From a virus (Duplodnaviria > Heunggongvirae > Uroviricota > Caudoviricetes), in IMG/VR virus record IMGVR_UViG_3300033075_000957, positions 64,001 through 128,000 of that record: a stretch of 64,000 bases of DNA, one strand, 5' to 3'. Of the stretch, positions 19,477-56,276 are shown one piece after another. The notes under the pieces are model-generated. The model ran no database searches, was not told where the DNA came from, and saw only the letters and a program-made list of their open reading frames with translations. Each line of letters opens with the position of its first letter. Within the stretch, counting starts at the first letter, position 1. The position numbers and the translations under genes are program-made.

Positions 19477-20145
19477 ATGAACTATAGACCTTATTTAGTA
19501 CTTGACACAGAAACAACCGGACTAAATCCGGACGATGGACACGAAATAACACAGTTATCGGCACTTGCTCTAAACGCAACGAATCTCAAAATTCACCCTG
19601 CTGGTAAGTTTAATGTATTCATTAAACCACAAAAACCTGAACTAGCTTCTCCAGAAGCCATAGCTGTAGCCGAAGCCTCTTGGAAAAAGGCAAATGAATC
19701 CGGCGTTCACCCGAAAGTGGCCGCACAAAAATTCATGGATTGGGCAGCGTCATTAAACCCAAAGGGCACAAGTATTTACAAGCCAATTTTTTCAGGATGG
19801 AACGTCCCGTTCGATTTAAAATTTGTCAATCATCTATTAACTACTACCGGTGTTGCTAAAACCGAAAAAGAAAGACCATATCACTATAATAGCGTAGATG
19901 TTATGACCATGTATTTTGCACTACTTGAATCGCATCCCGATATCCGTGACAATCGGATGGATACCGTTATGAAAGCTTTTGGTATGACAAGAAAAAGCGA
20001 GTCACACGACGCTATGGAAGACGTAGAGTTGTGTGCCGAACTGCTTCAACGCGGACTTTCGTTTTTCCGCCGATGCCAAAAGTCAATGAAAATTATAGCA
20101 CCGCAAGATGCTAGGCAAATGATTGCGGAGGAATCTGGTGTATAA
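19477..20145 (+). CDS. dnaQ: DEDDh 3'-5' exonuclease (DnaQ/epsilon-like)
   Basis: LVLDTETTGL, GWNVPFDLKF, HDAMEDV. Confidence 0.88.
   Translation: MNYRPYLVLDTETTGLNPDDGHEITQLSALALNATNLKIHPAGKFNVFIKPQKPELASPEAIAVAEASWKKANESGVHPKVAAQKFMDWAASLNPKGTSIYKPIFSGWNVPFDLKFVNHLLTTTGVAKTEKERPYHYNSVDVMTMYFALLESHPDIRDNRMDTVMKAFGMTRKSESHDAMEDVELCAELLQRGLSFFRRCQKSMKIIAPQDARQMIAEESGV
20137..20144 (+). promoter_or_regulatory. candidate late-promoter motif GGTGTATA
   Basis: same 8-mer as upstream of minus-strand structural genes; 7 nt before ATG 20152. Confidence 0.35.
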
Positions 20146-35358: not shown

Positions 35359-36003
35359 ATGAGCGATCGTTATGAATTATCGTTTTGGCGTCCAAATAAA
35401 AGCAATAATGGTGCGGCAGCAATTTTCACGCTGCAACAGGATGGAAGCACTTGGCTCAAGATGATGCCACAAAACGGAGACGGTGAGCGTTCTTTTGATA
35501 ACGCCGCGTCGATCAACGTCAAGATTGGATTGGGCGACATTGGTCCAATGCTTGCTGTTATTAATGGTCAGGTAGATGGTATCGGAACCAAGGCCGAAGG
35601 CAGCAAGTTCTGGTCAGGCATCTTGCACAAATTTGGCGAATCCAGCACCGCTGTTAACTTTGCCAAGAACGACAAGGGAGGTTATTATTTTGGTATCAGC
35701 CGCAAGGTCGGTGCAGGCGAGCCTGTCCGCATGAATATCTCATTATCTGTCGGAGACGGTCAAAACTTCCGTGTATTCCTTGAGCGTGCTGCGTGGGCTG
35801 CGATGTTTAATGAATACAACAACGGCGGAGGAAACGACGGTGGCGAGCCCGAGCAGGCGGAAACCCCTGCGACCGCCCCAGCCAAGCCTGCGGCAGCGAA
35901 AACTTCTAAAGTTTCTAAAGTTGCGAAGCCTGCGGCCAAGCAGCCCGTAGCGGCAGGCGTCACTCCTGACTCTGGTCAGCCAACTGACGATATTCCCTTC
36001 TAA
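35359..36003 (+). CDS. single-stranded DNA-binding protein, Whirly/PC4-like core with bacterial-type acidic DDIPF tail
   Basis: FWRPNK..GAAAIF, STWLKMMPQ..RSFD..INVKIGLGDIG (Whirly-like); Ala/Pro/Lys linker; C-terminal DDIPF. Confidence 0.65.
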   Translation: MSDRYELSFWRPNKSNNGAAAIFTLQQDGSTWLKMMPQNGDGERSFDNAASINVKIGLGDIGPMLAVINGQVDGIGTKAEGSKFWSGILHKFGESSTAVNFAKNDKGGYYFGISRKVGAGEPVRMNISLSVGDGQNFRVFLERAAWAAMFNEYNNGGGNDGGEPEQAETPATAPAKPAAAKTSKVSKVAKPAAKQPVAAGVTPDSGQPTDDIPF

Positions 36004-36607
36004 CATAGCCTAGCCAACCAACTATCTGCCCCTTGGGTGAAACTAAGGGGTAGGATTCACAAAATACAGTCATCGGATGATCGCGATTCACCCGATAGGT
36101 CATTTCAAAACGCCGTTTATCTTTAACGGCGTTATACCATTCTTTAACAACGTCTTCACGGTCGTCTATATAAACACCGTTAATCCAACCTCTACCAATA
36201 GCGTCGTCCGAAGATAATCCGTAAGTTTCTTGCCAGCCTTTAGATACCCAAATCGTGTTACCATCAGCATCGGTTTCAAAACTAATTTCGCCCGGATGTT
36301 CAGCAAAATAACGCGAACGCTGTTCACTGAGTGCTACGCGACGATCGATCCTATCAATCGCATCTCTTAAAGACGATCCACCATTTGGTTTTAAATCTTC
36401 ATTTAATTTAAGAACAAGTGGATATAATTCTTCCACTTGTGTAATTGTTTTATTAATATTTGTAGAAAAAGTTTTTAAATTTTTGAACGTGGTTATCATT
36501 ATTCTAATTCCTGCAACTATTGGTTTCCAGAAAATAGCTACAACTCCGGCGAGCAATGTAATAAGACCGGCGTATTCTTTGATTTCTTCAATAGATAGTA
36601 ATTGCAT
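35960..36607 (-). CDS. membrane-anchored holin-like/DUF2746-like protein fused to a PAS domain
   Basis: N-terminal TM (AGLITLLAGVVAIFW), coiled coil with PNGGSSLRDAIDRI, then PAS FETDADG..WVSKGW..TYG....AIGRGW..VY.DDRE.V..EW. Confidence 0.75.
   Translation of the reverse strand: MQLLSIEEIKEYAGLITLLAGVVAIFWKPIVAGIRIMITTFKNLKTFSTNINKTITQVEELYPLVLKLNEDLKPNGGSSLRDAIDRIDRRVALSEQRSRYFAEHPGEISFETDADGNTIWVSKGWQETYGLSSDDAIGRGWINGVYIDDREDVVKEWYNAVKDKRRFEMTYRVNRDHPMTVFCESYPLVSPKGQIVGWLGYVRREYRQLADQSQE
36027..36052 (+). terminator. stem-loop after the last plus-strand gene (no U-tract)
   Basis: TGCCCCTTGG-GTGAAA-CTAAGGGGTA; two G-U wobbles work only on the plus strand; lies inside the antisense CDS. 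Confidence 0.4.
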
Positions 36608-36616
36608 AGCATACTT

Positions 36617-36624
36617 TATACACC
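36617..36624 (-). promoter_or_regulatory. candidate late-promoter motif GGTGTATA
   Basis: in a 20-nt intergenic gap, 9 nt before ATG 36607. Confidence 0.45.
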
Positions 36625-36627
36625 TAA

Positions 36628-37068
36628 TTACTTGCCATTAATCGTCAATTCTGTCCATTTTTTCAGTTGACATTCGCCAACTTGTGTTTTACAAAGTATA
36701 AAGCAGCCACACGCTGCACCATTACGAGCGGGATCGGGGGCCATACACTGTGAACCTGTGGTCAAGTTGCCATTTTTCTTTGTAGAAAACTCACATTTAC
36801 GGCAAATATCTCTATGAGCAGAAATTTGGTCATCATTATACTTTATTTCATTTGTAAAACATTTAGCAAGTCCGGTAATACCATCTTTAAACCACAATAA
36901 TAAATTGGATTGACTCGCAGCCGCTTCAAAAGTATTTACTATCGGATTAGATTGAAAAGTTTTTGTAACTTTTGGAACGGTATTAGCCGCTTTTGGATCG
37001 TGTACAACGGACTCAACTGGTGTTTTACTAAACATTGGTTTTGATTTATTATTTCCACAACAACCCAT
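36628..37068 (-). CDS. small Cys-rich protein (MGCCG...; CRKC..C..CGCF..KT..C..KKW)
   Basis: ATG 37068 one base after the upstream stop; DUF6171-like C-terminal Cys pattern. Confidence 0.6.
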   Translation of the reverse strand: MGCCGNNKSKPMFSKTPVESVVHDPKAANTVPKVTKTFQSNPIVNTFEAAASQSNLLLWFKDGITGLAKCFTNEIKYNDDQISAHRDICRKCEFSTKKNGNLTTGSQCMAPDPARNGAACGCFILCKTQVGECQLKKWTELTINGK

Positions 37069-37069
37069 A

Positions 37070-40000
37070 TTACGCTCCCAAACAATACGGTCCAAAGAAC
37101 CTTAAATCATTTTGTCCACTACCACTTAAAAACAGACCGGCATAACCACAAACAAATCCATGACTAGACTCCCACCCGAATATATAGTCAATGGTTTGCG
37201 GAGTAGGAGTAGTTGTAGTATCATCACACGTACTCCAATCACGATGTCCTATAGAATAGCCACCGCTCTCTGCCGACGTAGGCGGATTAATCGTAGCCGG
37301 ATTAAGACACTCAGAATCGCCACCGGTAATAACGTAATTTTGATCTGTGCTTCGCGTGTACGAGCAGGTATACATACCATCACACGGGTCAGGGGTCGTT
37401 TCAGAAAATGTTGAAGTTTCTGTAAAGATATAATCATAAGCTATCCCCCAACCGGGTAGTCCCACGCAACCCTCATCAAAACTAACGGTACCGGAAGTGA
37501 CGGTGGTGCCGTTATCCAAAATCAAACACCCTAAATTACTATTGCAATCAAAGCATTCGGGAGTAGGGGATGGGTTGGGTGAAGCGGTAAATGTTACGCA
37601 TCCGGGATCGCCACAGGTTAAAGAATAACCACAGTCGCTCGTATAAGCATATACATGGTCTTCGCACACTGGAACGAGATCACACCCGCACGGCGATAAA
37701 TTGTAAGAAAGCGACACGGAAAATGATTCGCTCAAATAACCCTGATTAACACAAATAGGCTTTGGACATGTGCCCGGCATCGAACTAACGCATACTCCGG
37801 GAGCATATCCTAAGCAGGCGGGATTTGATCCATTTACCTGTGCTTCACAACCATTCATACCAACAGCATAGGTATACGAGTTTGACGTTTTGCTATACGT
37901 AATACTTTGGGTATAATATCCATTATTCTTAGAATCCAAACAGTTGGCATCTGTATCACAAGAAAATCCGCATTCTGCACAAACTGTACTACAGTCAATA
38001 TCAATACGGTTGCATCCATAGCTGTTTCCAGCACATACATCCTCGGCAGTAGTATCTTGAATAATCGGTCTAAACAACGCACACAACGTTGTTGGATCAT
38101 TCATATAATCAATAAAATTACCATACACCACGCCTAAATTACAAATCTTATCCCATCCATCACATGAAAAACAAAAATAAGTCGGAGCCGAACAGTCTAT
38201 AGCATCCGCATAGCCCGGATCACCAGTGTCAACACAACCATCAGGAAAATTAAAGTAGGAATAAGTACTGCCCATAGGAACCATAAGACTACTAGGCACA
38301 GTATTCTTTTTAGTAATTCTAGGATCAAAATTCCAAGGATGTGTCGAGCAAAACGCCCCAGCGGTTCTACCGGCAATAAAAGCGTATGGCAGATCATCGC
38401 GAGGAATTTCATCCAATCGCACCTTTTGTGCCGTTGGATCAAAATATTGGCACCATCCCTGATTATTTGAATAAATCGGGGCGGTAACGTCGCAAAATTC
38501 AACTTTGCCCGGCATAGACACTTCGCCGCCATTTTGGAATCCAATTAGTACGCCATTATGTACTACCGCAAATGGTACTTTTACCATACATGGAATATCA
38601 CAATCGGGATGGAAATCGTATTCACATACGTATAGTAAAGGTTGATACACTGAAGTATCAGGATATCCAGCCTGAGCCCAGTAAGCATCATTTAAGTTGG
38701 GACGGGCCTGATTAAACGGGTGCGGATACGACGTAATATTGCCATCTGTACATCTCTGTACCGTTTCTGCCGTACACCTTCCGGCAGGAATAAACCATTG
38801 TGTTAAACAATTAGGACTTGTGCAACCATAAGCAATTCGCCAGCTTCCAGCAATTACGTTATCGCCCTCGCAATTGAGCGTAGTACCATTAATAACAGTC
38901 GCATCGGTTGGAAGACATGGTGGCAACCATGGGTCATTTTCAGCGGTTGCACCCCAATAGCACAGGCGTCTGGTATTACTATATAAAGAGGCATATGCAG
39001 CCGTACCGATATTCGTTTGTACCAAATCTAGCAAAGGTTCTTTATACGAGAAGTTGTAAGTAGTAGGGTTGATTGTTGAATATGAATACGTGCCAGCGTC
39101 TATACTGGTAACGTCGCTTAACCAGCATTCGTTTGGAAGATCTGTAACTCCTGTAAACGGGGTGTAGCTGCCAGATGCCCATGTAAATGTAGCACCGGCC
39201 AATTCTGCGATCAGATCAGAAACAGTAAATTCTGAATTTGGTACCGTGTCAATACCAGTGGTCGCAACATGCATGCCACTAGCGTATAGTAATAATCTGC
39301 CAGTTGTTACTTTAACCCATGCTTCAGTAAATTGTGGGTCAACAGACGGTTCAAGCGGATTAAGACCGATACTAACAACATTGGTTTTACACAATGGCAT
39401 TGTGGTCCACCACATAGAGTTACCGCGTACAGCTACGCCATAATCTACATTGTCTTTGGGCACATGGTATGTTAAAGCTCTACAAAATGGCGGCGTGGAA
39501 GCTACGGCATTAGGACCGGGCGTAATGGGCTGATAATATTGTGTTACTACACCAAGATCGTCAGCAAGTGATAGTGAATTGCTGAAATACTTATTGTATT
39601 CCTTTGGCATTACAATATGCGAACCACTACGCAAATTACTTGAATCGCCGTAAGGATTACCCAATGCGTCTCCGTTAAATCCGCCAACATTGGATTCGAA
39701 CACTTCTGCCGAAGTATTCATGATGCGTGATGCTGGAATAGATCGGGCGTCCGTACTTCCAACGCAAAATTCAAAAATTGTGCAACCAGATAGAGCAGAA
39801 ATTCCACTTGTGCGTAGATTGTTAATAGCGTCTACATAATCACCAATCGTCTTTCCTGAACAGTTAAATCCAATCTGAATTGGACCGCAGCCGTTCCCGG
39901 CAGAATAACTCACATTTAAATTAGGACTGATAGTCGTTTCGTCGATCGCAATATATTGATCAAGATCGTCGAATTCATCATCACCAACAGCAAACGGAAT

Positions 40001-41533
40001 GGGCCGGAAAGCATAAAAATAAATGTTTATTTCTTTTGTCTCTGTCCATTCGCCTACGGTTTCAATAAAACCATAAGGACGGTAATCCCACCCCGAACGA
40101 GGGGCTCCGGGATATCCTGACGAAAGAAAACTTTGATAACCGTGGCCATAAGGATTAGCGGTAGTACTGTACGGTTCTTCCCATGCTGGATGGGGAGCTA
40201 ATTCAATATCTTTATAATAAGACCCGAACGGTCCCCAAGTTATATTTTTGTGCCACATCGGGATAAATAATTCGACGGCACAATTACACGGTACGGAAGA
40301 GGCGCAACTATCAGGATAATTACAATCCGACGTTACATGTAACGCCTTGTCATTGTAATAGTCGTTTTTTGGTCGTCCATCCATGCCAAATAGGAAAAAG
40401 GATTTGGTCATTGAATAGCAATCGGTATTGTGCAGATAGGTGTTTTCTAGATTATCTAATGATCCATTGCCTATACAACTCTCGATGCAGTATCCGGTCA
40501 CTTCTGGCAATATTGGCTGATTGGCACCCATCAGCAAGCCTTTTTGCGGAGAACATTGTGTTCCGTTATAATATGCAGGCCCATAGCCATATGTATCTTC
40601 ATAAGGGCACCAAGTGCCAGTACCGGCAATATAATATTCTTTTGATCCGGCAGATGGATTTAAATACGAATCATTAGGATCGCTGTCGTGATATGTCCAA
40701 GCCGTAGTTGTTCCGGGACACACGTTTGCATAGGTTGTGATTTCAGGCTGTGTTATACCACATAACGCATCGGCAAAAATAATATCGACAATAAAACTGC
40801 CGAAATATGTGCCTTCCATATATTCGTTTCGCACCACATCTATACCGGCTCCAATAGTCGTCTGTAACGCTGTCTCAAGATTGGCTTTGAAGGTGTTGAC
40901 ATTGGTACTTGGAGCAACATAGATAATGTTTCCATTCCATTCAAGATATAGTCCAGAAGTCTTGCTGTCTAAATATTCTATCGTGCCATTCAAGAAATGC
41001 AACGAGGCCGTAGCTATACTATAGGACGAAACTCCACTGAAATCACCATTTAGAAGCGATATTGACCAACGTCCGGGATGATTGGTAGTCGTCTCCGACC
41101 CCATCTCAGATATGACATCGCTTACAGTTTTGTTCGCGAGCGAAATAACAATATCAGGCAGGCCAGTACTACTGATAGTCACGTTGGTACCGTCCCAAAC
41201 TACATCACCGGTAACACCTACGCCAGTGAATTGAAAATAAATAACATCGGTATAAACAGTAGGATCGGTCATGGTGGCGATACCACCGATACGCAATCTT
41301 TGTGCTTCGCAAATACGTATTACACCATCGCAGGTAGCATCATATTGCACAAATACACGCTGACCAAACTGACACTGTTCCCACTCGGAGCAAATACCGT
41401 TCCGAGGGTCGGTGTTTATTGGACAAGGCACCGATTCCCAAAATACACCAGTAGCATGATCACAGCAGCATTCTGATAATAAATAGAACTTTGATACCAG
41501 TAAAGAATTTGAATACTTAAGAGTATCGGTCAT
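37070..41533 (-). CDS. 1487-aa Cys-rich putative virion/tail-associated protein
   Basis: about 70 Cys by manual count, CCC near the N-terminus, dense Cys in the last ~400 aa; located in the tail operon. Confidence 0.7.
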   Translation of the reverse strand: MTDTLKYSNSLLVSKFYLLSECCCDHATGVFWESVPCPINTDPRNGICSEWEQCQFGQRVFVQYDATCDGVIRICEAQRLRIGGIATMTDPTVYTDVIYFQFTGVGVTGDVVWDGTNVTISSTGLPDIVISLANKTVSDVISEMGSETTTNHPGRWSISLLNGDFSGVSSYSIATASLHFLNGTIEYLDSKTSGLYLEWNGNIIYVAPSTNVNTFKANLETALQTTIGAGIDVVRNEYMEGTYFGSFIVDIIFADALCGITQPEITTYANVCPGTTTAWTYHDSDPNDSYLNPSAGSKEYYIAGTGTWCPYEDTYGYGPAYYNGTQCSPQKGLLMGANQPILPEVTGYCIESCIGNGSLDNLENTYLHNTDCYSMTKSFFLFGMDGRPKNDYYNDKALHVTSDCNYPDSCASSVPCNCAVELFIPMWHKNITWGPFGSYYKDIELAPHPAWEEPYSTTANPYGHGYQSFLSSGYPGAPRSGWDYRPYGFIETVGEWTETKEINIYFYAFRPIPFAVGDDEFDDLDQYIAIDETTISPNLNVSYSAGNGCGPIQIGFNCSGKTIGDYVDAINNLRTSGISALSGCTIFEFCVGSTDARSIPASRIMNTSAEVFESNVGGFNGDALGNPYGDSSNLRSGSHIVMPKEYNKYFSNSLSLADDLGVVTQYYQPITPGPNAVASTPPFCRALTYHVPKDNVDYGVAVRGNSMWWTTMPLCKTNVVSIGLNPLEPSVDPQFTEAWVKVTTGRLLLYASGMHVATTGIDTVPNSEFTVSDLIAELAGATFTWASGSYTPFTGVTDLPNECWLSDVTSIDAGTYSYSTINPTTYNFSYKEPLLDLVQTNIGTAAYASLYSNTRRLCYWGATAENDPWLPPCLPTDATVINGTTLNCEGDNVIAGSWRIAYGCTSPNCLTQWFIPAGRCTAETVQRCTDGNITSYPHPFNQARPNLNDAYWAQAGYPDTSVYQPLLYVCEYDFHPDCDIPCMVKVPFAVVHNGVLIGFQNGGEVSMPGKVEFCDVTAPIYSNNQGWCQYFDPTAQKVRLDEIPRDDLPYAFIAGRTAGAFCSTHPWNFDPRITKKNTVPSSLMVPMGSTYSYFNFPDGCVDTGDPGYADAIDCSAPTYFCFSCDGWDKICNLGVVYGNFIDYMNDPTTLCALFRPIIQDTTAEDVCAGNSYGCNRIDIDCSTVCAECGFSCDTDANCLDSKNNGYYTQSITYSKTSNSYTYAVGMNGCEAQVNGSNPACLGYAPGVCVSSMPGTCPKPICVNQGYLSESFSVSLSYNLSPCGCDLVPVCEDHVYAYTSDCGYSLTCGDPGCVTFTASPNPSPTPECFDCNSNLGCLILDNGTTVTSGTVSFDEGCVGLPGWGIAYDYIFTETSTFSETTPDPCDGMYTCSYTRSTDQNYVITGGDSECLNPATINPPTSAESGGYSIGHRDWSTCDDTTTTPTPQTIDYIFGWESSHGFVCGYAGLFLSGSGQNDLRFFGPYCLGA

Positions 41534-49098: not shown

Positions 49099-51189
49099 TT
49101 AAACTCCGCTAGGGGCTATGGTACTAAAACTAGCATTAAATACCCCATTTTTCCAATCCCAATTTTCATTTTTCCCAACAATAAACCAGTCAGTACCATA
49201 TACACCTAAATCAGCCATAACGTTCGAAAAATATCCGGACGCAACACCTCGTGGACCGGTGCGATCGGAAAATGTCCAATGAGTTGTCCCGTTAGGCCCC
49301 ATGATCAAGGTAACCGATACATTTCTACGATATTCTGTTTTGGTACCGATATTTTGTATGATCGGCCCAGCGGCTCTGCCGGGAATAATCTGTGGGACTA
49401 CAACGTCCTGCGGCCAAACTTCTTCTACAGAAATGTCGGCAATAGCTACGTTTGTTCCACTAGCCTGTAGCGAATTGTTATACGTGAAGTTATAGCCAAT
49501 TTGTCCAGCATTACGATTGACACTAATTTGGCGGGTGACAGGACGGTTCTTAATGCCGGGAGTATTAGGAGCATATGTAGCCACATAGCCGCTAACAGTA
49601 TTATATATTGTTCCTAAAACAGTAGACCACGCGGCACTGGCGTTATCATAACGTCCTGACGGACTGTCACTTGTTTGTAGCCCCTGAACGGTTCCGTTGA
49701 TAGTTGCGTTTACAAGATAACCACCATTTGTACCGATCGCATTCTGTGTACTTACGTCTATGCTATAAATATTTGTGTACGCATCACCGGCAGAACCTTC
49801 GGTATATCCAAAAGTATAACTATAGCTAATTACGCCATTAGGCTTGTTGTGCGAAATTGTCTTAGCAACAGGGTTGTTGCTAAAATTGCTTGCCGTTAAG
49901 CCTGACCCGAAGATAGTGTTATTACCATAAGCAAATGCTAGGGTCTTTAATGTTGGTTGTAAAGCCTGCCATCCGGTAATAGCGGCGTTAAACTTCTCGC
50001 CGTTTGGACCCCAAAAACCATCTAAAGTTATTCCCTCAATTTGTCCGGCAATAGTAACAGACGGTACGGAAGAGGTGTCATTATTAAACGAAACATCATA
50101 GCTATGCCGATAAAAGCTGCCGGTGTTGTTTACGTAGTTAATGCCGTAGCTTAGTGTGCCATTAGTCCAGTCTTCGTCTAGTGAAATAAGTTGTCCTGAT
50201 CCATACGCACCTACCAGCGAGCCAAGGACATCTTTGATACTGTTCCAGTATGTGTACGCATTAACCAGTCTTCCGGAAACCGAGTTCCCCGTAGAGAATC
50301 CTTGGATCGTTCCGTTCACGCTGATATTTGTTATAGTAGCGGACAGATCGCCTAAAAGTGGGTACTGAGTGCTCTTTGAAACTCGACGATTTTCTATATA
50401 CGGCTGTGTCCCGTAGTTATATCTTTGGGTAACAGTGTATGAACCTGCTGTCTTGTCTACCGTTTCCTCTTCAATAAAATTACTGTACCCGGTCATGGAA
50501 ATCGTGCCAGTAGGAAGGTTGAAATAGTTGTCTTCCATGCCTACGGAGGTAATTCTGGCTGTAACCCATGCCTTGGCATTTTTCCACGCTTCCCCGTTCG
50601 CGATACCACTGACGTTCCAGACGGTTTGTGCTGTAGCCGCAACGGTTCTGGCAATGTTATATGAAGTCAAACTGTCTTCGCGGCGAGCAATGCTAAAAGA
50701 ATCCGACACGCGGACCAGACCGTAGCCAGAAGAATTCAAATACCAATTGTCTTCAATGCCGGACGACCCTACCTTATTAAGATAGTTGGCCGATAAATCG
50801 ATAGTATAGTCGCATTTTTGTACCCATACTCCCGGATCAAACGAAATTGCATTAAGACGAGCGTAGCACTCAACGGCGTTTTGACCTGACGGAGCATAGT
50901 AGAAATATAGTCCGGTGTTTGCGAATAACTCTCGCATATATTCTTGTTTGAGCAAGATGGCGTTGTGCGAAGCATCAACTGTAACTATTGTTGTATCATT
51001 CGGTACATCGGTTTCAGACGCATGCCATCCGCTCACGCGGGGCGAGCCCATATCCGGCAGCAGGGTTCCGCGTAAACCAATCTGATACTGAGTATTTACT
51101 AACCGACCATCATCTGAAAAGATTCCCTGCTTGTTGATTGTAACGAGCGGAGCGGGCACTATTCTTTTATTGTTGATCCATAAAGTCAT
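49099..51189 (-). CDS. putative distal-tail-region protein with ~100-aa internal repeats
   Basis: directly follows the tape measure; repeated (I/V)NGT(I/V)QG..SGR..NA..W units. Confidence 0.55.
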   Translation of the reverse strand: MTLWINNKRIVPAPLVTINKQGIFSDDGRLVNTQYQIGLRGTLLPDMGSPRVSGWHASETDVPNDTTIVTVDASHNAILLKQEYMRELFANTGLYFYYAPSGQNAVECYARLNAISFDPGVWVQKCDYTIDLSANYLNKVGSSGIEDNWYLNSSGYGLVRVSDSFSIARREDSLTSYNIARTVAATAQTVWNVSGIANGEAWKNAKAWVTARITSVGMEDNYFNLPTGTISMTGYSNFIEEETVDKTAGSYTVTQRYNYGTQPYIENRRVSKSTQYPLLGDLSATITNISVNGTIQGFSTGNSVSGRLVNAYTYWNSIKDVLGSLVGAYGSGQLISLDEDWTNGTLSYGINYVNNTGSFYRHSYDVSFNNDTSSVPSVTIAGQIEGITLDGFWGPNGEKFNAAITGWQALQPTLKTLAFAYGNNTIFGSGLTASNFSNNPVAKTISHNKPNGVISYSYTFGYTEGSAGDAYTNIYSIDVSTQNAIGTNGGYLVNATINGTVQGLQTSDSPSGRYDNASAAWSTVLGTIYNTVSGYVATYAPNTPGIKNRPVTRQISVNRNAGQIGYNFTYNNSLQASGTNVAIADISVEEVWPQDVVVPQIIPGRAAGPIIQNIGTKTEYRRNVSVTLIMGPNGTTHWTFSDRTGPRGVASGYFSNVMADLGVYGTDWFIVGKNENWDWKNGVFNASFSTIAPSGV

Positions 51190-54100
51190 TAATATCCTCC
51201 ATACGACATATTAGGATTATCAAGGCGAGGCTTAGAAGATTGCAACTTACTTGCTTTATCAGGCTCATCCGCAAAAACTTCTGACAATTTGGAACTAATT
51301 GCTTCTTCAATGTTTTTCTGAATTTCCGGTCCAAGAATTTCAAGAATACCATCTGAAAACACTTTGACATTCACAAGCATCGGTTCAACGGCAACACTAT
51401 GTTCCATTTTATTTGCGGCAGCCATCTGCTCAAATCTATTAGAAGTCATAGACGGTATATCTGGAGCGGAAATGGGACGCATCTGCGAATCAACAATAGC
51501 AACTTTTTGTGCCGCATCACCAAATAGTTTATCTACCTGATTCTTGATACCGTTCAACGCACCGATACCTTGATCGGCAATCATCTGTAGGACAACCGTC
51601 TGATCAAGCAAAGCTTTCTTTTGTTCGATCATTACGTTTTTCTGTACGTCTAGCGACCGTACCATTTGTTCACGTAACTGTGTTTCTAATTTAGAAGCGT
51701 CTCGCTGTGCTTGGAAACTTTGTAGTAATTGCGACTCAATGTCTTTGGAAGATACGTTTTTACCAGTGAAAGCGGTTAGTGCTGCTGCGATTGCAGGGCC
51801 GCCGAAAGATGAGTTGATCTTGTCGTTAATCTGATTTCCTGTGAGATTTGTTCCTTTAATGTTGAAGTCACCGATAGTAGAAAATAATCCGGTTACCCTA
51901 TCAAGTCCGCCCGGACCTAATGCGGCAAAACCTTTATTTAAAGCAGCACTGCCGGTTGATCCTCCTGTAGCCTTGCCAAACTTACGCAAGTCGCTTAAAG
52001 CAATAGCGAAATCTTTCTTCGTCATCTGGCGAACAGATTGACCGGCCTCGATAACCGTTGACTTCAGTGTTGTGAATACTTCGCGTAAGCTATCGGTTGC
52101 ACTAGCAGCATTATCAATACGATACTGTAAATCTTCTAGGCTTTGATTGAATAACTGCTGAACACGATTGAACGCGGAGGCCGACTCCTGTGCCTTACGC
52201 TCTAAATTAAAGGCTTGTTGCGTAGGATTACCGCTTGATTGTGCCGCACGGTTCTGGTCACGTATCAATTGTTTTTGGGCAAATTCTAAAGCACCGGTAA
52301 AATCACCACTGGAAGTATTGGCTCGACGCAAAAAGGCCGCTGCCCGTTCACGCTGAGTGTCTACTCCAGAACCACCGGATAAGAGATTAAATCTACTACC
52401 TTCTATTCTACGGTCTTCGCTCGCGTCTTTGAAATTACGGATTCCATCGGATGCCTGCTTGATAGCATCGTCCATTTGTAATAACGATGCCGCAAGCCGT
52501 GATCGCACCTCTAGTTCGGCGGCAACCGCCTCCGCTTGTGCTCGTAAAACATTTGCGACTGAATCGCCTACATCTTTCACGCGTGTAAGTTCGTCAGCCG
52601 CTGCCCCGGCATTATTGCCTATCTTATCAAGAAACTGTAAAACATCATTTAAAGTTGACTCCGGTCCTAACAATCCTTGTACAGCAGCAAGAACCGGCTC
52701 GGCAATTGCTTTTGTAGCATCGTCTCCAAGATTTTCAATAAACGTACCGATAGTAGCAATTTGCGAAGTGTCTTCGCCACTAGCAAAATTCTTGCTCAAA
52801 CCATTTTTAACAGCATCAGTAAAGTTTTTGTTAGATAATATCTTCGAAAGATTTTGTGTAAGAGCATCTCGGATGTTAAAGATTCGCCCAAAACCACTTT
52901 GGTCGAGTAATTGACGGTTATTACTAGTAAGATTTGGTTTAATCAAATCTGTAAAATTAGTAATAACTTTTGCGAATTGAGAAGATATATCAATCTTCCC
53001 TAATTGCTCGTCAAAATCACGCAGCGACTGCACGGTTCTATCCAGTGAAAACCCAAGTTTATCAAAGAAATTAGACGTATCTTCGTTTCGTTGATCGACG
53101 CGACCAGTCTTTACACGTTTTTCTAAATCCGATAGTGTGCCTAACTTACCTTGCGATGTAAGATCGGCAAGTACTTTACGGATTGCGTTATCACCGCCTC
53201 CGGTACCACCAGATATCTTTCCGAAAAGATTCTTAATAGCCTGATCGCGTACTTTAGTTAAATCCTGATCGCCTCCGCGAGCGATATTTTTAATAATCTT
53301 GTCTTCCTCGGCACGAATAAGTTTGGCAAAATTATCAGCGTTCTGCGGAGAAGCCTTAATGAAATTCGCTATTCCGTTTGGATTGCTTACCGTTCTTGTT
53401 TCTGTTGTTACAGATTCGCCAAGACGCCTATCAAAGACGGTGCGTCCCGGAATAACCGTTGGCGAGCCAGCACCAGCAATTGCCCGTAAGAAACTCGTTG
53501 GGTCACCAGCGTTTATCTGTTTGGTAAACTCATCCGCCTGTTTCTCTATTTGTGCTTTAGTGTTCGCCTCCATAGCACGCATGAGGCCAATAGTAGCACC
53601 AGTCAGCCCGCCTATAGCCGCCCCCCACGGACCTATCAACGATCCAAGACCTGCACCAATACCAGCACCTTGTAAAGCACCATTGAATAAATTTTGACCT
53701 GCGGACGGACGATCCCCACCAACATTAAGAGCACCTGATCCGGCTATCAACCCGCCGATTCCCAAAGCAGACAGTGCTGTGCTTCCAAGACCTGCCCTAG
53801 CAGCCAGAGCACCGATTCCAAATCTACGCGTATATCTTGCCCCCAAAGCAAGCGGATTTCTTTGACGACGAGCAAGAGAGGCAAGTGCTCCTTCTGACCC
53901 AGCACGGTCTTCCAGAATAGAAAAAGCCTGCTGGGCAGAAATTCCGTTATTCATCGCGATACGATTTACAATTCCACGATTCTTAAACGACCCTAAGAAT
54001 CCAGAACCGAATTCTTTAACTCTTGGGAGTGCCCATGCCGCACCTAAACCAGCAAGCACGGCAATCAAAACTTTACCATTCTTTACAACATCAGAAAAAC

Positions 54101-56276
54101 CAACTGCAAGATCAGCTAAATCTTTAACCAATTTCTTAATCGTAGAATCACGCGATAGAGTTTCTATCATGTCAGCAAACGCCGCAGCGATGCGATTAAA
54201 ACTTGTTGCTACATTATCACCGGCAGCCTGAGCATCTTTTTCGACCGACCCAGCAGATCGTGCGATAAGATCAAAAACCGTAGTTTGACCCTGACCCTTC
54301 TTGATAGCTTCGGAATTGATTTCTTCCAACAGCTTTCCAAAACGAGCCAACTGACGAACATCAACAAGAGGAGAAAGTAAATTGTTCTTCTGCTGTGAAG
54401 AAAGTTTGGCATATTTGTCAGCTAAAACATCTAACTGTTGTATAACAGTCAGATTACGTATATCTGATCCAAATATCGATTCTAAGAAATCTTGCGACTT
54501 GTTACTCTGTAATTTGACCAGCGTTGTACGGAAGAACGTAGAAACTACAGCCGCTGATTCACGAGTCTTACTGCGTAACAACGTTGTAAGTTCAATAAAC
54601 TTATTAAGATCAGCACCGGCAGAAGTAAAAGCGGAACCTGATTTCGACGCAGCTTCAATCAAGTCGCGAGATTCGATAGCGGTTTCTTTGGCGACATAGT
54701 TAAAACGATCAAGAATACTCACGGTATCCGTCAATCCAAGTCCGAACTGACCGAATACGGCGACCAGACCTTCGGCGGTAGATTTCACATCGTCGAAACT
54801 CGGAGTCAGAGGTAGGTCAGCGAGAATCTTAGTAACAGACTTTAATTGTTCAACACTATCATAACCAGCCTGTGCAAATACCAGCAAACCCTCAGAAATA
54901 TCGTTTATGCCAGTACCAGTATCTTTCGCAGACGCGAAAATAGCACGGCCAAGATTCTCCATATCGTCTTTGGTACCGCCGGTAACCTGACGTAGTTTAG
55001 TTAGATTCTTATCAAATTCTTTTGTCTGCTCAATGCCCGAGTAGAATAAGCTTGACAGCTTTTGAAATGCGAATGTGCCAAGTACGAATGCGGAATAACG
55101 CTTGAATGCCAACGCAGTATTCTCGCCGAAACGCCTAGCACTAAAAGCGGAATTTTCATAAGCACGCTTTACTTTACCTAGCTCGCTAACCGCGTTTCGA
55201 ACATTGGTGAAGTACTGTTGACCGAACGGATTTTTCTGCGACTCAATAGGTGATTTTGCACCCTGACCAGCACCACGCAGCATCGCGATTTCTCGCGGAT
55301 TCTGCTGAGTAAACTTGCGAGCCTGCTGAAGAGTGCTATTATTCCGGCTTATACCAGCGGCTTCCGCCTTATTAATCTCGTGCTGTAAAGCAAGTTGTTG
55401 TTGCTTTACACGCGATTCTTCTTTATCAAGTTCGATATTCTGACGTATTAAAGTTTTTCTCTCTAATTCCGTACGCGATTCATCTGCCGCAATATTTGCC
55501 CGAACGATTCGTTCAGTGCTCAATTGCTCACCACGTTTTTGAGCGGCATTATCAGATAATAATTGACGCTGACGTTCAGCAAGCTGATCCCGATTTTTCT
55601 GTTGAAACTCGTTTCTCTCTAGAAATTCTGGCAAACCTCGATTGCGGCGAGCATTAGCTTTCTTTTCGTTTTCAGCCGCCTGCAAGTCTGCTAAACGAGC
55701 CTGCTCTATGGCTCGCTGCTTATTCAAAGCAACTTGTGCCGCAGCAGCAGTCTTTTCATAAGATTTTGCCTCTTTTACTTTCGTAGAAGTTATTTGTTTT
55801 TCAGCAGTTTGAATTAAACGTACTTGATCATTAACTGTATCAGCCAAGCGTTCTGCAACTAAACTTTTAAAATCTATACCCTCGAAAATACCTACATATT
55901 TACCAATTACAGATTTTAACTTTCCAGAATCGCCTTCCAGAGCTACCCGGCCAACTTTACGCAGAGCCGCTTCCACTTGTCGAATCTGAGTTACACTATT
56001 TTTTAACTCTAAAGCGGCAAGCCCGCCTCCAAAAATACTTTTGAAAAGTTTGTTTTTCCCACCACCAATACCCTGTAATCGTATAAGCGACTTACCGAGT
56101 TTTTCGGTTGAAGATGTCATCTCGTTAAAGACATTAGCGTTGAATTTGGTTAAATCATCAACGCGAACATTCTTAAACGCATTACTAGCAGCCGCAGCCA
56201 GCGTAGCCTGAAATTTTTCAATGCCACGTATCTGCTCAATAGTTAATGTTGATGGAATATTAATTCTATCCGCCAC
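51189..56276 (-). CDS. tail tape measure protein
   Basis: 1695 aa, helical and Ala/Gly-rich; TP901-type FDKNLTKLRQVTG..IFASAKDTG..FAQAG region; central hydrophobic GAGLGSLIGPWGAAIGG segment. Confidence 0.92.
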   Translation of the reverse strand: MADRINIPSTLTIEQIRGIEKFQATLAAAASNAFKNVRVDDLTKFNANVFNEMTSSTEKLGKSLIRLQGIGGGKNKLFKSIFGGGLAALELKNSVTQIRQVEAALRKVGRVALEGDSGKLKSVIGKYVGIFEGIDFKSLVAERLADTVNDQVRLIQTAEKQITSTKVKEAKSYEKTAAAAQVALNKQRAIEQARLADLQAAENEKKANARRNRGLPEFLERNEFQQKNRDQLAERQRQLLSDNAAQKRGEQLSTERIVRANIAADESRTELERKTLIRQNIELDKEESRVKQQQLALQHEINKAEAAGISRNNSTLQQARKFTQQNPREIAMLRGAGQGAKSPIESQKNPFGQQYFTNVRNAVSELGKVKRAYENSAFSARRFGENTALAFKRYSAFVLGTFAFQKLSSLFYSGIEQTKEFDKNLTKLRQVTGGTKDDMENLGRAIFASAKDTGTGINDISEGLLVFAQAGYDSVEQLKSVTKILADLPLTPSFDDVKSTAEGLVAVFGQFGLGLTDTVSILDRFNYVAKETAIESRDLIEAASKSGSAFTSAGADLNKFIELTTLLRSKTRESAAVVSTFFRTTLVKLQSNKSQDFLESIFGSDIRNLTVIQQLDVLADKYAKLSSQQKNNLLSPLVDVRQLARFGKLLEEINSEAIKKGQGQTTVFDLIARSAGSVEKDAQAAGDNVATSFNRIAAAFADMIETLSRDSTIKKLVKDLADLAVGFSDVVKNGKVLIAVLAGLGAAWALPRVKEFGSGFLGSFKNRGIVNRIAMNNGISAQQAFSILEDRAGSEGALASLARRQRNPLALGARYTRRFGIGALAARAGLGSTALSALGIGGLIAGSGALNVGGDRPSAGQNLFNGALQGAGIGAGLGSLIGPWGAAIGGLTGATIGLMRAMEANTKAQIEKQADEFTKQINAGDPTSFLRAIAGAGSPTVIPGRTVFDRRLGESVTTETRTVSNPNGIANFIKASPQNADNFAKLIRAEEDKIIKNIARGGDQDLTKVRDQAIKNLFGKISGGTGGGDNAIRKVLADLTSQGKLGTLSDLEKRVKTGRVDQRNEDTSNFFDKLGFSLDRTVQSLRDFDEQLGKIDISSQFAKVITNFTDLIKPNLTSNNRQLLDQSGFGRIFNIRDALTQNLSKILSNKNFTDAVKNGLSKNFASGEDTSQIATIGTFIENLGDDATKAIAEPVLAAVQGLLGPESTLNDVLQFLDKIGNNAGAAADELTRVKDVGDSVANVLRAQAEAVAAELEVRSRLAASLLQMDDAIKQASDGIRNFKDASEDRRIEGSRFNLLSGGSGVDTQRERAAAFLRRANTSSGDFTGALEFAQKQLIRDQNRAAQSSGNPTQQAFNLERKAQESASAFNRVQQLFNQSLEDLQYRIDNAASATDSLREVFTTLKSTVIEAGQSVRQMTKKDFAIALSDLRKFGKATGGSTGSAALNKGFAALGPGGLDRVTGLFSTIGDFNIKGTNLTGNQINDKINSSFGGPAIAAALTAFTGKNVSSKDIESQLLQSFQAQRDASKLETQLREQMVRSLDVQKNVMIEQKKALLDQTVVLQMIADQGIGALNGIKNQVDKLFGDAAQKVAIVDSQMRPISAPDIPSMTSNRFEQMAAANKMEHSVAVEPMLVNVKVFSDGILEILGPEIQKNIEEAISSKLSEVFADEPDKASKLQSSKPRLDNPNMSYGGY

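Follow-up and report, generated by a model that had tools for sequence, protein, structure and literature searches.

The 215-aa protein encoded on the minus strand at 35960–36607 of the window (the whole stretch of 64,000 bases analysed, i.e., bases 64001–128000 of a virus record of 156,166 bases with an estimated completeness of 99%) is read here, by tentative preference, as a late single-pass N-out/C-in lysis regulator of the LysF1b/LysA2b kind to which a PAS domain has been added as regulatory input. A role in lysis as such is likely and, if it is granted, a true sensory role of the PAS domain appears fairly probable. The wider proposal, put forward with somewhat more reserve, is that such proteins may be widespread phage lysis regulators whose cytoplasmic PAS domain reads a host metabolite or the redox or energy state and so sets lysis time; in this genome the protein would do so from outside any cassette and from a putative late promoter of its own.

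Burst size depends on when lysis occurs, and the known control is either a built-in holin clock or superinfection inhibition. The proposal bears on how host physiology feeds into the time of lysis: if it is correct, lysis would be timed by an intracellular chemical cue, beyond the holin clock or superinfection alone. A sensor fused to a LysF1b-like regulator would be directly testable; PAS-less siblings occur in cultured phages, and published lysF1b/lysA2b deletion phages exist. No description of PAS-bearing phage lysis proteins was found in the literature searched (most subscription journals lay outside the search); new here are a sequence link to LysF1b/LysA2b that is backed by controls, a linker whose length changes in heptad steps, and an example that lies outside any cassette and has a conserved promoter-like motif of its own. 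The features are as follows (window coordinates; basis in brackets):

35960–36607, minus strand: whole gene, 215 aa, in the order TM helix, stalk, hinge, linker, PAS (ORF, Pfam, structure model)
36506–36571, minus strand: single TM helix, approximately residues 13–34, predicted N-out/C-in (hydropathy, charge bias)
36398–36505, minus strand: helical stalk of variable length, residues 35–70 (model, family alignment)
36344–36397, minus strand: conserved helix-break hinge of the ELKPNGGSSLRDAIDRI type, residues 71–88 (alignment with EQVxNxHxTNLRDDIDRL of LysF1b/LysA2b)
36287–36343, minus strand: helical linker of heptad-quantised length, residues 89–107 (D82-to-G116 spacing)
35996–36286, minus strand: predicted cytoplasmic PAS domain, PAS_3 type, residues 108–204 (Pfam, model, Foldseek, conserved columns)
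36617–36624, minus strand: RGTGTATA promoter-like motif, 9 nt before the ATG (motif counts, orthologue conservation)
36026–36053, plus strand: 11-bp hairpin antisense to the PAS codons; the SSB-like gene stops 22 nt before it (z −2.8)

Gene, genome setting and upstream motif

Gene call: The ORF (ATG start; window ORF list) closes the minus-strand structural arm, as the first-pass annotation had stated, and stands tail-to-tail with the plus-strand arm, the convergent SSB-like gene (35359–36003, plus strand) being overlapped by 44 bp. The structural arm includes a tape measure gene (51189–56276) with tail-fibre-like genes after it (Pfam and PHROG scans), and the end-of-arm position of the 215-aa gene is conserved in the syntenic relatives L001 and L007. 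Comparison with the L001 orthologue (pN 0.21, pS 0.69; identity 98% in the hinge region, 76% in PAS and 34% in the TM helix) indicated a coding gene under purifying selection. A chance ORF or a shadow of the SSB gene was excluded by these pN and pS values together with the PAS_3 match above its cut-off (given below). Directly upstream lie genes for two Cys-rich proteins of 1487 aa (37070–41533, minus strand) and 146 aa (36628–37068, minus strand); no Pfam or PHROG family was found for either, and L001 and L007 have similar genes in matching order.

Upstream motif: The sequence at 36617–36624 is GGTGTATA. The gene had been credited on first reading with a motif of its own, which holds in so far as the motif is real and kept upstream of the orthologues in L001, L007 and L055; the consensus has to be restated as RGTGTATA (R being A more often than G), and the exact form is enriched (of 32 sites in the genome, 18 fall in the 60 nt before a start, where 1.5 were expected), whereas the one-mismatch form is not enriched in the window (53 against 47.9). 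The motif stands before structural-arm genes and several others (the one checked encodes an HNH endonuclease), e.g., at window positions 20137, 46497 and 61260. From where the sites fall, we infer that RGTGTATA is a late promoter; a sigma-70 scan gave nothing above chance. The motif often lies just 7 nt before the ATG, a spacing that points to late transcripts with no leader or almost none.

Hairpin on the opposite strand: The stem codons at 36026–36053 are identical in four orthologues and the loop codons vary, so that the stretch would be dual-coded. No U-tract follows; the hairpin is probably a terminator or 3′ stabiliser of the plus-strand arm.

Protein architecture and the PAS domain

Set of relatives: A HMMER search gave about 60 clusters (50% identity) of the same size and layout among the top 150 matches, and a profile search gave 169 proteins; the combined set amounted to at least 117 lineages after dereplication at 55%. 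A 14-sequence alignment was used as query in the locus search.

Domains: The N-terminal hydrophobic helix (KD19 2.03 from residue 16) is the only such helix in the protein. The AlphaFold model (mean pLDDT 89.8) consists of helices 6–72 and 78–103 with a break at PNGG, the motif PNGGSSLRD being residues 74–82, followed by a full PAS fold at 108–204. PF08447 (PAS_3) was matched with 34.1 bits against a Pfam cut-off of 25.6, PAS_4 likewise scored above its cut-off, and the top Foldseek matches in the PDB were PAS domains only; the conserved PAS residues are G116, W141, R150, W157, R165, G197 and G200. C-terminal of PAS nothing is conserved and a median of 8 residues remains (117 lineages); no member with a longer fusion to an output domain was found among these lineages or in a fusion search, the latter being weak evidence. 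The single N-terminal TM helix, the coiled coil with PNGGSSLRD and the complete PAS fold lacking an output domain, all described on first reading, were thus recovered, as was the PAS_3 match for which an HMM search had been proposed. A truncated kinase was rejected as an origin of the gene, the family ending a median of 8 residues after PAS.

Topology: K/R residues are commoner C-terminal than N-terminal of the TM helix in 114 of 117 lineages; the 215-aa protein carries 1 K/R and 3 D/E before the helix and 3 K/R and no D/E after it. This excess supports a predicted N-out/C-in topology, with the N-terminus outside and PAS in the cytoplasm.

Hinge–PAS spacing: The distance from TM helix to hinge varies from 12 to 79 residues across the family, the stalk being its least conserved segment. 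From hinge to PAS (D82 to G116) there are 34 residues in 82 lineages, 41 in 12 and 48 in 2, the choice of relatives by similarity also favouring the 34-residue class. Heptad steps preserve the phase of a coiled coil, as would be expected if PAS acts on the hinge via the linker helix, and the spacing therefore suggests coupled signalling; it is the best evidence, of an indirect kind, that PAS regulates. Since there is no output domain, the sole possible output of PAS would be N-terminal, into the hinge and the membrane anchor. In the longer forms P0023 and P0054 the hinge and PAS unit is present as a tandem duplicate with one TM helix. A homodimer prediction for residues 30–205 scored 0.15 against a mark of 0.42 and was counted neither way.

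Ligand: The LOV, haem and FAD criteria were those of Xing et al. 2023 (PMC10468136), FAD (NifL/Aer/MmoS type) being assigned from a Trp on helix F plus at least one His/Asn determinant; with them, no known cofactor motif was clearly found in the family PAS. The LOV flavin-cysteine motif is absent from the 117 lineages (cysteine exceeds 46% in no column and has no column at the LOV site, which reads GxGW in the family), and so is the FixL/Aer2 haem histidine, the only histidine column above 20% being position 146 (40%; Tyr in the 215-aa protein). W141 is present in 100% of lineages and W157, on the long PAS helix, in 94%; in view of these two residues flavin binding may be considered a possibility. 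The PAS pattern comes closest to that of the largely unstudied H(P)(D/E)D...R type (Xing et al. 2023, PMC10468136): position 146 is H in 40% of lineages, and D149 and R150 complete the pattern.

Relatives, known lysis regulators and gene neighbourhoods

Extent of the family: Atlas clusters of the TM–hinge–PAS shape are 99–100% viral, the largest having 1,142 members. The exact family motif occurred at only 9 loci in 185,579 prokaryote genomes, all of them actinobacterial and of the short form, and tblastn of the 215-aa protein against 50,697 GenBank phages gave no match, so that this search yielded no cultured phage with the PAS form. The hinge motif also finds PAS-less proteins of 64–130 aa; PAS-bearing and PAS-less forms both match PHROG 9869, a family of unknown function, through the N-terminal module. 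The homology of TM helix, stalk and hinge between them is clear, the PAS-less proteins differing in having no PAS; examples are Thermobifida phage P1312 gp40, Arthrobacter phage Sonali gp22 and Streptomyces phage TurkishDelight gp37. P1312_040 (L109:4686–5129; 147 aa), which overlaps the start of an amidase gene, bears the name 'sensory protein kinase CreC', likely a misannotation of a PAS-less family member.

Relation to host PAS domains: PAS and the helix before it match bacterial histidine kinases with approximately 25–33% identity over many matches. Fold, sequence pattern and preceding helix are common to the phage protein and to the PAS_3 domains of kinases and diguanylate cyclases (cluster-8-like, PMC10468136), but a kinase, cyclase or DNA-binding output is missing from the phage protein. 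When phage and kinase PAS domains were placed in one tree, built on 102 columns and therefore of little resolution, 3 label changes were counted against 28 for shuffled labels, and a single phage clade was not rejected (p-AU 0.88). Judged from this tree, the PAS domains of the phages appear to be a single lineage, distinct from those of host kinases.

Comparison with LysF1b and LysA2b: LysF1b (phages Girr and NormanBulbieJr) is a single-pass N-out/C-in protein that is needed for efficient lysis and works with a 2-TM partner (PMC13056207); alone it is toxic and supports lysis (PMC13056207; bioRxiv 10.64898/2026.08.27.747656). LysA2b (gp30) of phage D29, of the same topology and likewise needed for efficient lysis, has its gene among minor tail genes, at a distance from the lysins; it shows toxicity together with its 2-TM partner and none alone (bioRxiv 10.64898/2026.08.27.747656). 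The reference profile was made of D29 gp30 and six homologues (7 sequences), one of the latter being a 124-aa F1-type protein taken as the LysF1b orthologue from its size and position. The segment EQVxNxHxTNLRDDIDRL of this set aligns on ELKPNGGSSLRDAIDRI with no gap, and His is found at the matching position in five lineages. HHalign of the combined PAS-less and PAS-bearing module against the profile gave 78.8% (pairwise E 1.6e-5; reversed control 6%), and PAS-bearing N-termini alone gave 58% with a score of 27.4 (not above 19.0 in 60 heptad-preserving shuffles), all controls being 7% or less; with the full-length profile the value was 28.5%, the match being limited to one short coiled-coil motif. 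The profile score had a median of 6.4 bits in the family, against 0.4 for 33 other charged 1-TM proteins, and was only 5.2 bits for the 215-aa protein itself. The hinge is likely, though not proven, to be a remote homologue of that of LysF1b/LysA2b.

The likeness extends to the single N-terminal TM helix with predicted N-out/C-in topology, the basic residues after it, the helical cytoplasmic part, the in-register hinge motif ending in LRD-x-IDR, the frequent small 2-TM neighbour and a position that can be among tail genes; by analogy the PAS protein probably works like LysF1b/LysA2b. LysF1b and LysA2b differ in their size of 88–150 aa, in having no folded domain and in a C-terminal ERxERIxGD motif, whereas the PAS family has PAS and not that motif. 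Unlike theirs, hosts of the PAS forms reach beyond actinobacteria, several cassettes having spanin-like genes. LysF1b/LysA2b are related to Pfam DUF2746 (PF10874), but the 215-aa protein and all of its 61 relatives gave no Pfam match to it; a further search gave one of 25 module sequences, at E 0.039, and none in 5 records. The DUF2746 match for which a search had been proposed on first reading was thus not obtained, the N-terminal module being that of PHROG 9869, and the PAS family is, by these searches, no member of DUF2746. The comparison suggests that PHROG 9869 proteins would extend the class of 1-TM lysis regulators well beyond mycobacteriophages.

Comparison with T4 holin T: The globular domain of holin T of phage T4 is GAF-like. 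This holin is N-in/C-out, and its periplasmic domain senses superinfection via antiholin RI (PMC11413866). The two proteins are alike in having one TM helix and a globular C-terminal domain that could regulate lysis timing, but the phage PAS protein is predicted N-out/C-in with PAS in the cytoplasm. Class III holins from Proteus phages were matched weakly by Foldseek (E 0.005 and 0.03); no Phage_holin_T sequence match was obtained in the Pfam or PHROG scans.

Neighbourhoods of the family genes: In 6 of 12 records, where 1.39 would be expected, a gene for a lytic enzyme or wall-binding protein stands no more than 2 kb away (P ≈ 0.001, an optimistic value because some lysin families were chosen after the neighbours had been seen). 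In held-out new lineages, lysins made up 4 of the 65 genes close by and none of the 33 distant ones, a difference in the same direction but not significant (p ≈ 0.19). Small TM genes are over-represented in the vicinity of PAS-bearing (p 0.034) as well as PAS-less forms (p 0.004). The lysin is far from the family gene in half of the records tested, and about half of the PAS-bearing lineages, including the 215-aa gene, have no lysis neighbour. Full cassettes were found in L025 (M15 peptidase, 2-TM protein, spanin-like gene) and L018 (3-TM holin, M15 peptidase); a CHAP-like neighbour stands in L033, an amidase in L047, a holin-like gene and an Rz-like gene with an embedded lipoprotein frame in L003, and a holin-like 2-TM gene, the family gene and a lysozyme in a row in L177. 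A separate 2- or 3-TM holin is found beside the family gene in L003, L009, L014, L018, L025 and L177. The family gene of podophage L032 stands between the tail genes and a T7-type terminase, the slot that holin 17.5 occupies in the T7 gene order. In L024, L034, L037, L046 and L123 virion genes surround the family gene and a lysis gene is absent. Three cultured phages were checked (P1312, Sonali, TurkishDelight), and in each of them the PAS-less homologue belongs to a lysis cassette.

The link to lysis made on first reading is thus upheld at the level of the family, by these neighbourhoods and by the remote in-register match to LysF1b/LysA2b; the endolysin association looked for near homologues is present in the 6 of 12 records, but not in the half of the lineages that have no lysis neighbour.

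Other arrangements: In L003 the Rz-like gene (2197–2739), two genes after the family member, fully encloses an out-of-frame, Rz1-like lipoprotein ORF (2468–2656). In some large phages (L008, L011, L036, L140) a peptidase gene (S8; C92 and M10; C1) and small membrane genes come after the family gene, possibly as unusual lysis cassettes.

Proposed mechanism, alternatives and candidate partners

As a regulator of the LysF1b/LysA2b kind, the 215-aa protein would accumulate in the inner membrane late in infection, oligomerise through its coiled coil or hinge helices and activate or license a separately encoded small holin. A small ligand, the redox state or a similar cue at PAS would shift the register of the linker helix and with it the hinge, and lysis would be advanced or delayed. 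The partner holin and the lysin would be encoded elsewhere in this genome, as for D29 LysA2b; that protein works from among minor tail genes, away from the lysins, which matches the tail-arm position here.

The same lysis role may be exercised with a ligand-free PAS serving for dimerisation or docking (to itself, a phage antiholin or a host protein, as the T4 T domain docks RI), a reading that is rather unlikely yet retains some weight. All of the lysis evidence applies to it equally; the LOV cysteine motif and a conserved haem histidine are absent, the domain resembles the largely unstudied H(P)(D/E)D...R type (PMC10468136), and PAS-less siblings are common, so that PAS would be dispensable for the core role. 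Conservation of W141 (100%) and W157 (94%) across very diverse sequences and a heptad-stepped linker typical of signalling helices speak for a sensor, although a purely structural role could explain both. A non-lytic late membrane protein (for superinfection exclusion, sensing of lysis inhibition or anchoring of tail assembly) is improbable. It would fit the end-of-tail-arm position conserved in L001 and L007, the five loci among virion genes named above and the absence of lysis context from about half of the lineages, but LysA2b of cluster A mycobacteriophages stands among minor tail genes and is nevertheless a lysis regulator, and the enrichment near lysins and small holins would be left aside. 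An exclusion protein, offered in the first-pass annotation, would need early expression; no result supports it, and the late-type promoter argues against it.

Quite improbable is a self-sufficient single-helix holin that forms the lesion itself, PAS being a built-in brake or trigger. LysF1b is toxic alone and supports lysis, the genes of L032 and L177 occupy holin-like slots, Foldseek gave the weak class III holin matches (E 0.005 and 0.03), and this genome has no partner holin adjacent to the gene; against this, the TM helix shows the lowest conservation of all parts when close orthologues are compared (34%), many cassettes have a distinct 2- or 3-TM holin next to the gene (the six listed above), the topology is opposite to that of T4 T, and LysA2b, the closest analogue, is not toxic alone and needs its 2-TM partner, so that a holin in the sense of a self-sufficient pore, as on first reading, is not supported. 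For the same reason, absence of toxicity of the protein expressed alone would be a false negative for a lysis role. Hardly probable is a decoy, tethered to the membrane, that would form heterodimers with host kinases or cyclases bearing PAS domains and shut off their signalling (for histidine kinases also proposed at first): PAS and its preceding helix do resemble histidine kinases (approximately 25–33% identity) and no output domain is present, but the phage PAS domains are separate from kinase PAS in the tree, a pattern unlike that expected of decoys, which should follow many host targets. It is the phage-specific hinge, outside PAS and common to the PAS-less forms, that is conserved most strongly, and host takeover does not agree with a late-type promoter and lysis genes nearby.

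Lysis candidates in this genome: No lysis gene is adjacent to the family gene here or in the syntenic L001 and L007, and 14 lysin families were not found in this genome (M15_3, M15_4, Amidase_2, Amidase_3, phage lysozyme, GH108, GH19, for which the positive control gave no match, GH25, PG_binding_1, CHAP, DUF5675, M23, SLT and NlpC/P60). The only lysozyme-like gene found is a destabilase (i-type lysozyme, PF05497 above cut-off) at genome positions 150216–150677 (L099:5216–5677), with a hydrophobic signal-like N-terminus; its closest relatives have small genes around them, neither a family member nor a cassette occurs in their vicinity, and the destabilase is therefore a candidate only for the lysin of this phage. 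Likewise a candidate only, for the partner holin, is a 107-aa membrane protein (genome 58045–58368; L097:1045–1368) with two or three hydrophobic helices, of holin-like size and unlinked to the 215-aa gene, for which no family match and no relatives were found. A further candidate partner, likewise far from the 215-aa gene, is a 250-aa protein (genome 63398–64150; L097:6398–7150), whose gene overlaps the window start and has its own RGTGTATA. It joins a lipoprotein-like signal to a coiled coil and three TM helices at the C-terminus, gave a weak match to an Rz-like spanin PHROG (E 0.007) and could be a one-piece spanin-like protein.

Other anchored sensor domains: Foldseek against BFVD gave weak matches to many Bacteroidota and crAss-like phage proteins of 170–250 aa with PAS/GAF-like folds; a wider set of anchored sensor domains may exist in phages.
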